This document shows, one piece after another, positions 6,383 through 41,963 of a DNA stretch of 49,440 nucleotides; the stretch's first letter is position 1; each line of letters begins with the position of its first letter. The translations under genes and the position numbers were made by a program. The DNA comes from a virus. Its lineage: Duplodnaviria > Caudoviricetes. The notes below the pieces were generated by a model, which saw nothing but the letters and a program-made list of their open reading frames with translations, did not search any database and was not told the DNA's origin. The stretch spans positions 1-49,440 of the IMG/VR virus record IMGVR_UViG_3300033076_000596, one strand, 5' to 3'.

Positions 6383-6891
6383 TGTGGACCTTTCAGATTA
6401 TCGCGCCATGCCGGGAAATCGTTTTCGTCAACTACGCCATCGCCGTTCAGATCATAGCGCATGTCATTCCGGTACTTTTCCCACGGGGCCATATCGTCGT
6501 CGTCATCGTCATCGACAGCTTCTGTCAGTTCGACAGGATCTGCTACGGGCGCAGCCATAGGGGCGGCGGGGGCCATAGGCTCTGGCTCTGGCTCAGGATC
6601 TGGTTCTACGGCAGGCGGCTCTTCAGGCTTTGCGTCACGAGCGTTGGCATTCAAGCTTAGGCCACCAAGGAGGCCGACGAATGCGCCGACGATGGTGTTG
6701 AATGCGGGGCCGATGATCTCGAAGACCTTATCGCTGTCCACAATGTCGTTCGATACGAACATGCCAGCCACCATAGCGGCAACCACAACAAGGATGACCA
6801 TTGCCAAAGTGGTAACAGCCAAGCGGATCGTGAACTCAATCGTGTCCTCGATGCCGTCCTGCTTGCTTTCAAATCTATCCCAGAAGCTCAT
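6379..6891 (-). CDS. Two-TM membrane protein (holin candidate) with acidic tail and EF-hand/dockerin-like loop
   Basis: Two hydrophobic segments; DLNGDGVVDEND near the C-terminus; overlaps the endolysin start. Confidence 0.6.
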   Translation of the reverse strand: MSFWDRFESKQDGIEDTIEFTIRLAVTTLAMVILVVVAAMVAGMFVSNDIVDSDKVFEIIGPAFNTIVGAFVGLLGGLSLNANARDAKPEEPPAVEPDPEPEPEPMAPAAPMAAPVADPVELTEAVDDDDDDDMAPWEKYRNDMRYDLNGDGVVDENDFPAWRDNLKGPQ

Positions 6892-33129: not shown

Positions 33130-33355
33130 GGGGGCAAAAAAAATATGGGGGTGGGGGTGGACCCTAAAAGGGGGGTGGGGGGTCAACGAGTTTCCGGAGC
33201 GAATTGTGCCTGAGAGAGGGTACACCCGCACCGCGAAGCGCGTGCGCGCGCGCGAAGTGCCTCCGTGGGGGGTGGTGGGGGGTGGGGGGTGGCGTCGCTG
33301 CCGAACGCTGGCAGGGGGGGGGAGGGGTTATGCATGAGGGGGGGGAGGGGTTGGC
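33130..33355 (+). repeat. G-tract cluster with alternating GC run
   Basis: Many runs of 4-8 G; GCGCGTGCGCGCGCGCG at 33238-33254. Confidence 0.7.
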
Positions 33356-33475
33356 GTCGCATCCCGGGCAATGATCCCACCACCAGGGCGAAGGAATATT
33401 CCTGCAAACACCAGGGCGAAGGCTGGCCGCGTCAACGGCTGCAGAATAATTGCCTGACAAATATCCCTAGGCCTG

Positions 33476-33503
33476 TTGACAAAAGGCGAGCTGGGCGTAT
33501 GCT
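33476..33503 (+). promoter_or_regulatory. Sigma70-type early promoter
   Basis: TTGACA-N16-TATGCT upstream of the first plus-strand gene. Confidence 0.7.
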
Positions 33504-33562
33504 GGCTCCGCCAGCGAGGTGCTGGCGCGGGCCTGACGCTGCCCAACTGAAAGGAACTGACA

Positions 33563-34313: not shown

Positions 34314-34498
34314 GCATCAAGCAAACGCTGGCGCAACTGAAGGCAATGGGTCTGAAGGCCCGCTATGACATCGACTGGAAGGAATATCGCGTCACCCTGC
34401 CGGGCCTTGACCCGAAACGAGAAGAGGCCATCGCCTACTACACGAGCGACTCAGAGGACGCGCTGCACACTGGCGCGGCCATGAAAGGCCTGCAATGA
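34310..34498 (+). CDS. Early hypothetical protein
   Basis: 62 aa; ATGA overlap. Confidence 0.7.
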   Translation: MSIKQTLAQLKAMGLKARYDIDWKEYRVTLPGLDPKREEAIAYYTSDSEDALHTGAAMKGLQ

Positions 34499-34584
34499 CC
34501 AACAGAGAACTAATCAACGCCCTATGCGGCATCGCGCTGTTCCTGTGCCTGTTCTGGGCGCTGTGGACAATGACACCCGCATGA
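34495..34584 (+). CDS. 29-aa hydrophobic peptide
   Basis: Not in the track. MTNRELINALCGIALFLCLFWALWTMTPA; ATGA overlap; GAAAGG SD. Confidence 0.55.
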   Translation: MTNRELINALCGIALFLCLFWALWTMTPA

Positions 34585-34649
34585 GTCGAAACCGGGCATC
34601 GCGCCCGGTCTGGCGAGGGCTGGCCGCCCGCCACTGAAGAGACAGGCCA
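34585..34649 (+). ncRNA. Type II hammerhead ribozyme
   Basis: GUC-GAA-ACCGGGC(AUCGC)GCCCGGU-C^-UGGC..GGGC(UGGCC)GCCC-GCCA-CUGAAGA-GAC-A-GGCCA. The catalytic core is complete, all three stems form, and loop I pairs with the 3' tail. Confidence 0.92.
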
Positions 34650-34663
34650 TGAAAGGAACTAAT

Positions 34664-34840
34664 ATGGTTATCACTACACGCGCCCAACGCGAGGCCCTCA
34701 AGCGCATTTGGCTGCGCGGGGCAGACCAGCGCACCTATCGGCAGCTGCGCCGGGATGTGCTGCCGGGATATGATTGCGTCATGCTGCAATGGGCTGGGAT
34801 GTGGCTGGGCATTGAACGCGATGGTTATACGCATAGCTGA
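34664..34840 (+). CDS. Early hypothetical protein
   Basis: Start MVITTRAQREALKRIW after GAAAGGAACT. Confidence 0.7.
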   Translation: MVITTRAQREALKRIWLRGADQRTYRQLRRDVLPGYDCVMLQWAGMWLGIERDGYTHS

Positions 34841-34975
34841 GGCCTGATCGCGCACCCATCGCGCCGCGTGCCTGTTGACGCTGTGTTGACGCGTTGACAG
34901 GCATAGCGGCGCTTTTCGCGTAGGGTTGATCTGCATAGGGATGCCCTTTTCAACGCATTTATCAACGCAAACGCA

Positions 34976-35306
34976 TTTGTGACGCGGTTTTTCGCAGTTT
35001 TCCGCGGGTTTCCAGCGATTTGTGACGGCTGAAACAAGAGGTCGGCGGAAAACGTGACAGAAAAAACGGCAGTTTTCCGTGGGTTTCAAGCCCTCTTATT
35101 ATATATAAACCTATTTTAAGATAGATATATATAATAAGAGGTTTTTATTGATCCCTATGGCCATGGGTGGGGATGCATTCATTTCCCTATATCTATCCTA
35201 AAACGCGTCACAACGTCACAAAACGCGGAGACACTAGGTTTTCTGCTGGTTTCCGCGTCACAAAAAGTGTGACACGAGCGTCACAAAATTGGTCGAAACG
35301 TCACAA
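34976..35306. other. Putative origin of replication
   Basis: Non-coding; perfect 16-bp AT-rich inverted repeat (35092-35107 / 35126-35141) flanked by TTGTGACG x2 on the left and CGTCACAA x5 on the right. Confidence 0.65.
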
Positions 35307-35455
35307 AATAGCTTCAGCAGTCAACAAAACTGAAAAGGTGCTGAAAAGTGCGGAATTGTTCCTGATTAATCCCGATGCCGATTAATGCTAAACGTGACGG
35401 GGCGTGACAGTCTGGCGGCCGGGCTGCTGTTGAAATAGGCTGTTGAAATAATTTG

Positions 35456-35549: not shown

Positions 35550-36278
35550 ATGGCGAAACGTCCTGCTGGTTATGTAATCTATGATGGCCCGTCCATGATT
35601 GACGGGGAGCGCATTATTGTGATCGTCACGGGTATTCTGGGAAGCCGGAATGCCAAGACGGGAAAGATGGTGCAGACGTATATTATACGTCCTGATCTGC
35701 ATCCCTTGGAGGCTGTGCGCACTGGCGCTGATCGTTCGATCTGTGGCGACTGCGTGCATCGCGGCGATGGCACGGGCAAAGGCCGTTCGTGCTATGTGAC
35801 GCTGATCCACGGCCCTAAGAATGTCTGGGAAAGCTATCGGCGCGGGGTCTATCCTGCTGCAACGGCTGCTGAGGTTGCGGACATTGTGGCTGGAAAGATG
35901 GTGCGTCTTGGGACGTATGGCGATCCGGCGGCTGCCCCATTGGCGCTGTGGGAAGTGCTGACGGCGAAGGCTGCAGGCTGGACAGGCTATACACACCAAT
36001 GGCGCACGGCTGATCGCGGCTGGTCGCGGCTGGTGATGGCATCGGCTGACAGCCAGATGGACGCGAAAGAGGCATGGCTGCGGGGATATCGCACGTTTCG
36101 GGTTGGCGCTGCGCCTATGACGGGGCGCGAGGTCAATTGTCCTGCATCTGAAGAGGCTGGCAAGCGCACGCAGTGCATCGCTTGCAAGCTGTGCATGGGA
36201 AGCACGAGCAAGGCTCCCGTATCAATCCAGATTGCGCCGCACGGGGCTGGTGGTCGCAACTTCAAGGAGGCTGCATGA
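35550..36278 (+). CDS. Cys-rich putative metal/Fe-S protein (gp88-like / radical-SAM-like)
   Basis: SRNAKTG, CGDC..HR...CYV, VRLGTYGDP, GYTHQW, CPAS...C..C.LC. Confidence 0.6.
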   Translation: MAKRPAGYVIYDGPSMIDGERIIVIVTGILGSRNAKTGKMVQTYIIRPDLHPLEAVRTGADRSICGDCVHRGDGTGKGRSCYVTLIHGPKNVWESYRRGVYPAATAAEVADIVAGKMVRLGTYGDPAAAPLALWEVLTAKAAGWTGYTHQWRTADRGWSRLVMASADSQMDAKEAWLRGYRTFRVGAAPMTGREVNCPASEEAGKRTQCIACKLCMGSTSKAPVSIQIAPHGAGGRNFKEAA

Positions 36279-39175: not shown

Positions 39176-39568
39176 ATGACCGGTAATTATGGTAATGTCC
39201 AAGGCGATAAGCCCAAACGCCATGAAGCTGGGCGGCAGCGTAATTCCTTTCCGCGCCGTTCCGGAACGTCACAATCCCGGTCACCTATTTCGGCGATTAA
39301 AGAACGCCTGACCCCATCGCACATCGAAACCCTGTGCCGTTCGTGGCTGCCGTCAGGCAAGCGTCAGGGCGGCTGGTGGGTGTGCTGTAGTCCGTGGCGA
39401 GAGGACAAGAACCCATCGCTGGGTGTGTCCCTGCAGACAGGACATTGGAAGGACTTCGCGACAGGCGAGCGGGGCGACATGATCGACCTATCGATGCGCC
39501 TGTTTGGCGATAGCTTGGCCGAAACGATTGACGGCTTTGCTGAGATGCTGGGAATTAAGAATGCGTAA
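39176..39568 (+). CDS. Stand-alone primase N-terminal (CHC2 zinc-finger-like) domain protein
   Basis: CSPWREDKNPSL.V....G.WKDFATGERGDMIDL. Confidence 0.7.
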   Translation: MTGNYGNVQGDKPKRHEAGRQRNSFPRRSGTSQSRSPISAIKERLTPSHIETLCRSWLPSGKRQGGWWVCCSPWREDKNPSLGVSLQTGHWKDFATGERGDMIDLSMRLFGDSLAETIDGFAEMLGIKNA

Positions 39569-41963
39569 GGTGGACTTAACCGCTGTTGCGCCTGCCGATA
39601 TCACAGAAGCACCCAAGCTGGTGGCTCCGATGCCGGAGCCGGTTGAGGTTCCGACTTCGCTAATCAAAAGCTTAGGCCAGCCCGAACAGATGTGGGTCTA
39701 TCGCACGGACGATGGCTCTGCATATGGTGCGGTGGCGCGCTGGAACCCTGACGGCAAGCGCAAAGAGGTGCGCCCCATCGTGTGGGATGGGAAGAAGTTT
39801 GTAACGTCTGGCTTCGGCACAGACCGGCCGCTGTTCAACAGCGATCTGCTGGCTGCGCGTCCGATGGCGCCGGTTCTTGTGGTCGAGGGCGAGAAGGCTG
39901 TCGATGGCGCGGCGCAGTATGTGCCTGATGGCTGGGTCATTACGACATGGCAGGGCGGCAGCAATGCGTGGCAGCACACCAACTGGTCGCTGCTGGCTGG
40001 ACACAGGGTAGTGATCTGGCCTGACAATGACGGGCCGGGCGTGAACGCCGGCGCTGAGATCCAGAACGTGCTGACTGCGCTGGCTGTGCCGACCAGTCTG
40101 GTTCAGATCAGCTCTGCGTTTCCCGATGGCTGGGACTTGGCTGACCCGCTGCCTGAGAAATACACAGCGAACCAGATCACGGCGCTGCTGAAGAAGGAAC
40201 TGAAGGCTGCGCAGTTGGTGGTGGTGGAGGACACAGGTGAGCCTGTGGCTGAGGTTACCGACGCGGACAATGACGACCCTGACCAAGACCCTGCGCGGCG
40301 TTACCGCCCACTGGGATACGACAAGGGCGAGTACTTCATCATGACTGATGAGGAGTTTCAGATCAGATCGTACAACAGCAACACGCTCATGTCTGAGAAG
40401 GGGTTGCTCGCGATTCACGGCGACCGAGAGTTTTGGGCAGCGCAGCAGTACAGCACAGGGAAGCGGGTGGATTGGATCGGGGCTGGCCTCAAGGTGATGA
40501 ACGAGTGCCGTGCCATGAACATCTACGACACGCGCCGCCTGCGTGGGCGTGGCATCTGGATCGACAAGGACAAGGATGGTGCCGAGCGTGCGATGCTGCA
40601 CACCGGATCAGACCTGTTCATCAGCAGGCCAGACCAAGAGCTGAAGCAGACATCGTTCGTGCGCGTGAAGTCCCCTTGGATTTACGAGAAGCGCAAGGAC
40701 ATCATCCACGATGCAAGCTACAACGTGTGCGCGACAGATGATGAAGGCCGGCTGATCCGCGAGATGTGCCAGCAGGTGCGGTGGGGCAGCGAGTTATACG
40801 GCGACTTATTGGCGGGCTGGATTGCGACAGCGATCGTGTGCGGTGGCATGGACTGGCGCACCCACCTGTGGGTCACGGGCAATCACGGATCAGGCAAGTC
40901 AACAGTGGTGCGCAAGATCGTCGGCACCTGCATGGGTCAGCTCGCGCTGTATCCAGAAGGCTCAACGACTGAGGCAGGCCTGCGCGCTGCACTGCAGAGC
41001 GATGCGATCCCTGTGGTGTTCGATGAGAGCGAGAAGGAAAAGTACGCAGAGGAACGGATGCTGCAGATTCTGGCGCTGATGCGTCAGGCCAGTTCGGAAG
41101 GGCGTGGCACGATCATCAAGGGCAGCGCGACCCATGTGGCGCACGAGTTCAACATCCGGTCTGCGTTCATGCTGGTGTCGATTGGTGTCAGCCTCAAGCA
41201 AGGCGCGGATCTCAGCCGTACTGCGGTGCTGTCGATCCGGCCGCCGAGCAGCTATGCGCCATCAGAGAAGGCGGCATTGGATGAGAAGTGGAATCGCCTG
41301 CAGGATATCGCATCGACTCTGCCGATTGATCTGCCGCAGAAGCTGATCGCACGGCAGACCAAGAACCTGTTTCATCTGAAGCACAACATCGAGGTGTTCA
41401 AGGAAACGATCAGCAATATGCTGGGCAGCCCGCGTCTGGGCGATCAGCTCGGCACGCTGTTGGCTGGATCGCATAGCTTGTACTCGACGCGCCGGCTCAA
41501 CGTGAAGCAATGCGAGAAGTATCTGTCGCGCCACAACCTGAACGACTTCACTGAGGTGAAGGAAGAGCAGGAAGATATCGTTCTGCTGCGGCATCTCTGC
41601 ATTCAGATGATCCGCACCGAGACAACACACGGGGTGCAGGATCGTGCAGTGGGCGAGCTGATCCGCATCGTGCTGAACGGGCTGGAGTTTGAGGACGTGA
41701 CGTACCGCAGCGCAGTCAACACGCTGGGTCGGTATGGCATCCGCATTGAGAGCGACAAGGGCAGGCGCACAGGCATCTGGCTGGCCAATAAGTGGGAGCC
41801 ACTGGATCGCCTGATGCAGACGGCTGAGTTCTCGCAGGGCTGGGTGAACATCATCAAGCGTCACCCCCATGCACGGCAGAGCGAGTCTGCGCTGCGGTTC
41901 GCAGGCGCGACCAGCCGAGCGACATTCATTCCGCGTGAGTATTTGCCAGTGGAGGAAGCATGA
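39561..41963 (+). CDS. TOPRIM primase fused to P-loop helicase
   Basis: TOPRIM motifs VVEGEK, IWPDND and GWDLAD; Walker A GNHGSGKS; Walker B VVFDE. Confidence 0.85.
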   Translation: MRKVDLTAVAPADITEAPKLVAPMPEPVEVPTSLIKSLGQPEQMWVYRTDDGSAYGAVARWNPDGKRKEVRPIVWDGKKFVTSGFGTDRPLFNSDLLAARPMAPVLVVEGEKAVDGAAQYVPDGWVITTWQGGSNAWQHTNWSLLAGHRVVIWPDNDGPGVNAGAEIQNVLTALAVPTSLVQISSAFPDGWDLADPLPEKYTANQITALLKKELKAAQLVVVEDTGEPVAEVTDADNDDPDQDPARRYRPLGYDKGEYFIMTDEEFQIRSYNSNTLMSEKGLLAIHGDREFWAAQQYSTGKRVDWIGAGLKVMNECRAMNIYDTRRLRGRGIWIDKDKDGAERAMLHTGSDLFISRPDQELKQTSFVRVKSPWIYEKRKDIIHDASYNVCATDDEGRLIREMCQQVRWGSELYGDLLAGWIATAIVCGGMDWRTHLWVTGNHGSGKSTVVRKIVGTCMGQLALYPEGSTTEAGLRAALQSDAIPVVFDESEKEKYAEERMLQILALMRQASSEGRGTIIKGSATHVAHEFNIRSAFMLVSIGVSLKQGADLSRTAVLSIRPPSSYAPSEKAALDEKWNRLQDIASTLPIDLPQKLIARQTKNLFHLKHNIEVFKETISNMLGSPRLGDQLGTLLAGSHSLYSTRRLNVKQCEKYLSRHNLNDFTEVKEEQEDIVLLRHLCIQMIRTETTHGVQDRAVGELIRIVLNGLEFEDVTYRSAVNTLGRYGIRIESDKGRRTGIWLANKWEPLDRLMQTAEFSQGWVNIIKRHPHARQSESALRFAGATSRATFIPREYLPVEEA

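Follow-up and report, generated by a model that had tools for sequence, protein, structure and literature searches.

A type II hammerhead ribozyme fitted between a stop codon and a Shine-Dalgarno sequence in the predicted early operon of a Caudoviricetes genome

Organization of the locus

The stretch of DNA analyzed here (the window) is the whole 49,440-nt virus record IMGVR_UViG_3300033076_000596, whose completeness is estimated at 90%. The head and terminase genes lie on its minus strand, and the plus strand carries small early genes, a primase, a helicase and RecE/RecT-like genes. Relatives of the capsid protein (40-48% identity) belong to phages whose hosts are for the most part aquatic and include several Alphaproteobacteria; Pelagibacter, Roseobacter and Caulobacter are among these hosts. 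The primase appears as two overlapping ORFs (39176-41963): the first (39176-39568) is a CHC2 zinc-finger part, and the second, reaching 41963, is the primase/helicase part. A tract very rich in G and with recurring G runs occupies 33140-33360, between the start of the small terminase gene and the early promoter, and a similar tract is present in L147, the closest relative of the window. The features surrounding the ribozyme are the following:

33476..33503, plus strand: predicted sigma-70 promoter TTGACA-16-TATGCT (10 of 12 matches), upstream of the first early operon
34495..34584, plus strand: hydrophobic ORF of 29 aa, its start overlapping the preceding stop (ATGA) and its own stop abutting stem II of the ribozyme
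34585..34649, plus strand: type II hammerhead ribozyme (Rfam RF02276, checked coordinates, compensatory pair 34593/34607)
34652..34657, plus strand: Shine-Dalgarno (SD) sequence AAAGGA, within the GAAAGGAACT motif of several early genes (repeat family D1, 5 copies)
34664..34840, plus strand: ORF of 58 aa that closes the first early block, with relatives at 10 viral loci (46-79%)
34861..34912 (34861-34916 with the U run), plus strand: 23-bp hairpin followed by UUUU, a fold prediction, after the 58-aa gene
34977..35308, no strand assigned: origin-like tract, recognized from its sequence, in which TGTGAC/GTCACA repeats converge toward an AT-rich inverted repeat of 16 bp (35092-35141)

The promoter at 33476-33503 is to be taken as a prediction, because the yield of the promoter scan (4 sites vs. 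2.7 expected by chance) was close to chance; L147 also has a TTGACA at the corresponding position. Five small ORFs of 115, 70, 55, 62 and 29 aa follow, and the terminator scan made no plus-strand call in the interval from promoter to ribozyme. The last of these ORFs had been described as a membrane peptide: its hydrophobicity is borne out by the best 19-residue Kyte-Doolittle mean (2.22), while its membrane nature is a prediction.

The GAAAGGAACT leader motif is common to five early genes (positions 33549, 33909, 34133, 34651, and 35537). The gene behind the ribozyme most likely starts at the ATG at 34664, with the SD 6 nt ahead. The ATG at 34649 was discarded as a start, having no SD and overlapping the pseudoknot tail of the ribozyme, and the relatives start at the position of 34664. 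The 58-aa product had no match in PHROG or Pfam. The 23-bp hairpin is a predicted terminator or RNase III site that would end the downstream message; the terminator scan made no call at 34861-34912. Further downstream, the cysteine-rich product of a 242-aa gene (35550-36278) belongs to phrog_2554; its 575 relatives in IMG/VR are often located close to where the early region begins.

Identity and structure of the ribozyme

A preliminary description of this DNA, based on its letters, had proposed a type II hammerhead with a pseudoknot that is cut after C34610 and leaves a 5'-OH downstream, and had suggested a comparison with the Rfam hammerhead models. In that comparison RF02276 (Hammerhead_II) matched positions 34584-34651 over its whole length (model 1-66 of 66) with 45 bits vs. 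a gathering threshold of 37 (E 4.3e-6), and among 4227 Rfam families it was the only one to reach its cut-off in the window; none of 14 control genomes matched. Our own descriptor for type I, II and III hammerheads, used beside the Rfam covariance models, returned one site in the window, while 100 dinucleotide shuffles gave no match with at least 15 pairs and a mean of 0.02 matches with at least 12. All the structural elements were located where they had first been placed:

34585-34587 (GUC) and 34641-34643 (GAC), plus strand: stem II, 3 bp, open stem (coordinate check)
34588-34590 (GAA; GAAA at 34588-34591), plus strand: core strand (coordinate check)
34591..34609, plus strand: stem III hairpin, ACCGGGC (34591-34597) with GCCCGGU (34603-34609), 7 bp, pair probabilities 0.85-1.0
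34610..34611, plus strand: predicted cleavage site after C17 = C34610 of the GUC triplet 34608-34610 (hammerhead consensus)
34611..34633, plus strand: stem I, UGGC (34611-34614) and GGGC (34617-34620) with GCCC (34626-34629) and GCCA (34630-34633), 4+4 bp with a GA bulge
34621-34625, plus strand: loop I, UGGCC (coordinate check)
34634..34640, plus strand: CUGAAGA catalytic core strand (coordinate check)
34645..34649, plus strand: GGCCA tail, forming a 5-bp pseudoknot with loop I (duplex estimate -7.5 kcal/mol)

The site thus combines the covariance-model score of a Hammerhead_II with a CUGANGA/GAAA/NUH core, a three-way junction with stem II open and a pseudoknot of at least four pairs. Since the Rfam match, the covariation (see below) and the published consensus agree, its sequence supports an intact type II hammerhead with a loop I/3'-tail pseudoknot, together with the predicted cut and 5'-OH end. 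The close fit to its neighbors also holds, with stem II beginning at 34585, directly after the TGA of the 29-aa ORF (34582-34584), and the tail ending at 34649, 2 nt before the AAAGGA that starts at 34652. Stems I and III have high predicted pair probabilities, and stem II needs the pseudoknot, which lies beyond the model of the folding program.

No second hammerhead was found in the window with Rfam (E up to 2) or with the type I/II/III descriptor, so that in this record, about 90% complete, the ribozyme is a single copy and not part of a cluster of the kind described by Perreault et al., with at least two copies bracketing one gene. Rfam at its cut-off misses some of the descriptor matches (L198, the type I copies of L184, some copies of L082); the absences reported in this work therefore rest on both tools, and variant cores may escape both. 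A match to the snoRNA sR53 in the window was dismissed as chance (E 0.47, 22.6 bits vs. a cut-off of 49).

Selection on the fold

Related sequences were sought in contigs from five of the eight listed sequencing runs. Contigs of runs X2 and X7 (RNA runs of one study), about 95% alike to the window, carry C34593G together with G34607C, the two being partners in stem III; they also show three changes in loop III and a UGA to UAA change at the abutting stop, and among the substitutions listed (seven of eight) the core is unchanged. For the 29-aa ORF with its stop codon, eight differences are listed in related contigs: five synonymous, one stop-to-stop and two conservative changes.

A pattern built on the core and stem II of the window found 130 stretches in four of the 64 parts of IMG/VR, from which about 2,200 are estimated overall. 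The loci found with it, five more and the window gave a descriptor set of 171 distinct type II sequences from 119 sources, which is biased to the subtype of the window and includes related phages. Most of these sequences have a CUGAUGA core (129/171), and 14 share CUGAAGA with the window. Required by neither the pattern nor the descriptor, a pseudoknot of at least four pairs was present in 87 of the 97 copies with a long stem I, when swapping tails gave a mean of 22.7 and a maximum of 33 in 500 rounds, and in 11 of the 74 copies with a short stem I. The compensatory pair in stem III, the constant core and the non-random pseudoknot together indicate that the fold is under selection.

One may ask whether the motif has decayed or misfolds, so as to cut no longer. 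Competing folds are indeed predicted, and in the passages of Perreault et al. (2011; PMC3088659) on cleavage in vitro 14 of 18 consensus hammerheads cut and four were inactive; against the full consensus, the 5-bp pseudoknot and the compensatory change in close relatives, we regard an inactive relic as highly improbable. The X2 and X7 contigs span the cut site, hence uncut RNA or DNA was present across 34610/34611, an observation silent on cleavage. Contig ends at 34613/34584, 34637/34608, and 34648/34619 were considered as RNA ends and rejected, the 30-letter overlaps marking them as assembly branch points with no pile-up of ends listed. The X2 contigs do not cover 35010-35411, which carries no weight, and no habitat is claimed because runs X1-X7 share only 6-10% of their words.

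Layout of phage hammerheads

Among the type II hammerheads of the descriptor set, 128 of 169 (two were dropped for short flanks) had an SD and a start codon within 60 nt downstream, vs. 475 of 3380 random same-strand positions (14%) and three of 168 opposite-strand positions (2%); the median size of the downstream ORF was 86 aa (n = 109). On the other side, a stop triplet ended within 11 nt of the GAAA strand in 154 of 168 hammerheads (three dropped for too little upstream DNA), and the stops adjacent to stem II closed an SD-led ORF of at least 25 aa in 101 of 187 cases vs. 142 of 2480 random stops. Given this prevalence, the tight stop-ribozyme-SD fit of the window is the norm; such a layout is common in phages and has been described since 2011. 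Up to nine copies occurred in one locus: the type II arrays of L086 (2454-5330, nine copies) and L082 (3000-5924, at least seven) have each copy ahead of a repeated GGAGA-type SD. Another phage locus with a hammerhead, L198, also carries a Betaproteobacteria-1 RNA (RF02932, 89 bits) at 6402-6517.

The closeness of stop and ribozyme raises the question of a gating by translation, in which a ribosome at the UGA 34582-34584 would cover stem II and the GAAA strand, or a pairing between the stop region and the tail would switch the cut off. Stops end 2-9 nt from GAAA in 101 cases, and the fold of lowest energy for a 101-nt piece consists in an alternative 7-bp pairing. This helix, however, falls to a probability of about 0.1 with longer context and loses one pair in the UGA to UAA variant, on which ground the switch was rejected; moreover, termination would be brief relative to a fast cut, and compact phage genomes also predict tight packing, so that gating in either form seems very unlikely.

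Distribution among relatives and the predicted origin

The closest relative, L147 (the same as L002), shares with the window the large (92%) and small (76%) terminase subunits, the 58-aa gene (79%) and the 242-aa gene (83%), and has no ribozyme; nor did 70-nt windows folded around the 58-aa gene reveal a hairpin below -28 kcal/mol in its corresponding slot. None of the 12 loci spanning the region with a terminase at least 70% identical, some of them near-duplicates, carries a hammerhead, which indicates that the ribozyme is dispensable, and two of the 26 loci spanning terminase to 242-aa gene do. A tie to the family of the 58-aa gene was rejected, since none of the 10 loci with relatives of this gene had a hammerhead (Rfam, E up to 0.5); one contig end of run X6, with 30 letters resembling a hammerhead tail ahead of a 58-aa gene relative, is a hint only. 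Around relatives of the 242-aa gene Rfam found no hammerhead in the 14 of 80 loci that it covered, and the descriptor found type II copies in five of 80, two after the gene (L163 and L169) and three before it. Three type I hammerhead-like motifs, below the Rfam cut-off, surround the 242-aa gene relative of L184 (near 5897, 6769 and 7859).

The ribozyme had been noted to lie about 330 nt upstream of a putative origin, and from this the cut RNA had been linked to origin activation or priming. The distance is correct when measured to the first TGTGAC repeat (34977), the origin itself being predicted. RNA priming of the ColE1 type exists as a precedent, and a 2',3'-cyclic phosphate end is not extendable by DNA polymerase. 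Proximity is what speaks for such a link; against it, L147 has the 58-aa gene, the iteron and AT-palindrome tract and the 242-aa gene without a ribozyme, and the hammerheads of L163 and L169 are found beyond the 242-aa gene. Such a tract occurs within 1.2 kb downstream of one of 107 hammerheads, that of the window itself, in a narrow test that sought only the hexamer and AT run of the window. Gene and tract are separated by the 23-bp hairpin, and in L002 by a clear intrinsic terminator that follows the 58-aa gene; the phage encodes its own primase, and the upstream product would end 370 nt away. A ColE1-like primer does not fit a tract that stands without a ribozyme in L147, nor a product ending in a cyclic phosphate instead of a 3'-OH (PMC6765202). 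A role of the ribozyme at a replication origin is thus unlikely, and we give hardly any credence to activation or priming by the cut RNA. The tract itself is kept in L147 with 10 hexamers, vs. 0-2 in other close loci, and the 16-bp inverted repeat is perfect.

Possible gene exchange behind the ribozyme

Contigs carrying the 3' half of the ribozyme continue into three different sequences, which may belong to other phages rather than to strains. An X8 contig (1 difference in 51) diverges from the window at 34658 and rejoins it at 34847, whereas contigs of X6 and X7 (7 differences in 52) diverge at 34670. The ribozyme and the 23-bp hairpin may therefore bracket an exchangeable slot, as the X8 contig with another gene rejoins just ahead of the hairpin.

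Such joints would also be expected if the cut mattered little and the ribozyme with its SD were kept mainly as shared homology for the swapping of small accessory genes, hitch-hiking with them, and the patchy occurrence before or after the 242-aa gene points the same way. Homology alone, on the other hand, would not need the selection on the fold evident from the compensatory pair, the constant core and the non-random pseudoknot; the ribozyme is a single copy in the window, and joints in metagenome contigs can derive from other organisms. We consider this passenger role decidedly unlikely.

Probable processing of the early transcript and proposed insulation of the last gene

Judging from its sequence context, the hammerhead likely splits the early polycistronic transcript, and with moderate confidence we favor the view that the downstream gene thereby receives a leader similar to that of RiboJ, being expressed independently of the upstream genes. 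This view draws on the sequence, the Rfam membership, the covariation, the layout and the interchangeable downstream genes of the contigs. From these we infer that transcription starting at 33476 would pass across the ribozyme, which would cut itself once and constitutively after C34610, no signal being needed. Stem III and then C34610 with a cyclic phosphate would close the upstream RNA. In the downstream RNA the first base of stem I would carry the 5'-OH, the pseudoknot would lock this end and the SD would lie 2 nt beyond; the last early gene would thus be released as its own mRNA of about 300 nt, whose leader is fixed and structured. In the type II permutation stem II is the open stem, hence each new end would bear a hairpin, and product hairpins are predicted for 158 of 168 hammerheads upstream and for 127 of 168 downstream (60 nt). 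A standard leader resistant to decay may then let any gene in the slot be expressed independently of those upstream. RNase E prefers 5'-monophosphate ends, as known in part from a passage on RppH (PMC3328962). Tentatively, and with clearly less confidence, the hammerhead and SD might act not only as a natural expression insulator but also as a swap point, the fixed 5' end of a slot for exchangeable accessory genes; if so, incoming genes would obtain their own protected message in a cassette system of RNA parts that needs no integrase.

Several observations stand against insulation. When the pseudoknot is left out, ViennaRNA gives stem II a probability of 0.01-0.02 and favors, by -30.7 vs. -26.7 kcal/mol, an inactive pairing between 34580-34587 and the tail. 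In untranslated downstream products of 90-310 nt, coding sequence displaces stem I, whose probability is 0.05-0.41; the fold with stem I enforced is 1.6 kcal/mol worse, and stem I holds (0.51-0.86) only if the coding part is prevented from pairing. The X2 and X7 contigs are uncut across the site, and the element is dispensable in relatives with a close terminase. In hammerhead cleavage the cyclic phosphate remains on the upstream piece and the 5'-OH on the downstream one (PMC6765202). A 5'-OH end is not always protective, as RNase J1 degrades glmS mRNA that has been cut and bears such an end (PMC11780869; PMC3328962).

By analogy with glmS, whose structured 5'-OH product is degraded by RNase J1, the ribozyme could instead be a decay trigger or timer, passing its product to an RNase J-type exonuclease and so lowering or shortening the expression of the last early gene. 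Alphaproteobacteria encode RNase J, and Pelagibacter, Roseobacter and Caulobacter are among the hosts of the capsid relatives, and without translation the product may lose stem I. A strong SD directly behind the ribozyme in 128 of 169 hammerheads, up to nine copies punctuating one locus and a base-paired start of the product all suit expression better than removal. RiboJ, furthermore, raises output in E. coli, with about twofold more mRNA and 2-10-fold more protein (PMC6206723). We therefore hold a decay trigger to be unlikely, and retain processing with insulation as the preferred reading.

Comparison with known systems

Type II hammerheads were reported as very common in bacteria by Perreault et al. 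(2011; PMC3088659), whose passages on this type state that fast cleavage requires the pseudoknot between loop I and the tail, describe arrays on the flanks of prophage genes and put forward an mRNA-processing hypothesis. Three tandem arrays (C. scindens, A. caulinodans and A. tumefaciens) were cut in transcripts of about 2 kb, and a halovirus ribozyme lies 13 nt before an early gene, with an mRNA 5' end within 3 nt of the site. The ribozyme of the window resembles those of that report in the open stem II and closed stems I and III, the CUGANGA/GAAA core, the GUC triplet, the pseudoknot, the position between small phage genes and the proposed processing of a polycistronic RNA; it differs from the clusters described there in its single copy, 3-bp stem II and bulged stem I, and is known here from its letters. 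The supplements of that paper (Dataset S1 alignments, Figs S1-S8) may already contain the layout of the window.

As in RiboJ (Clifton et al., 2018; PMC6206723), self-cleavage just before the ribosome binding site would give a fixed hairpin 5' leader whatever lies upstream. RiboJ, however, is a synthetic construct, an sTRSV-derived ribozyme with an added hairpin placed after the promoter, while the copy of the window is natural, lies inside an operon and would use its own stem I and pseudoknot as leader. The glmS ribozyme (PMC3328962; PMC11780869) likewise cleaves itself upstream of a coding region to give a 5'-OH mRNA, but it requires GlcN6P, triggers decay by RNase J1 and has a different fold, the hammerhead having no known ligand site.

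RNase III cuts the polycistronic early mRNA of phage T7 between genes, leaving structured ends. That cut is catalyzed by a protein and gives 5'-phosphate and 3'-OH ends, whereas the hammerhead cut is catalyzed by RNA and gives 5'-OH and cyclic-phosphate ends.

The roles of bacterial hammerheads were called largely elusive in passages of a 2019 review (PMC6765202), and the copy of the window is one of the roughly 2,200 similar stretches estimated for IMG/VR. Searches with most subscription papers outside their reach returned nothing from 2015 onward on hammerheads in connection with phage genomes and early genes, nothing on hammerheads with the end chemistry of RNase E or RNase J, and no in vivo measurement of the role of a stop-ribozyme-SD cassette. 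The value of the window is practical: covariation at the level of strains reveals selection on the fold, and the contigs hint at gene swapping behind the ribozyme.

The cultured marine Roseobacter phage CRP-212 carries, between gp56 and gp55, a type II hammerhead missing from its annotation (L222 1505-1570, Rfam 38.4 bits). It is a single copy, with a TAG stop fused into stem II and the same GGCC pseudoknot, and because of this twin cassette in a cultured phage the question of whether such a leader stabilizes or destabilizes its message is directly testable.
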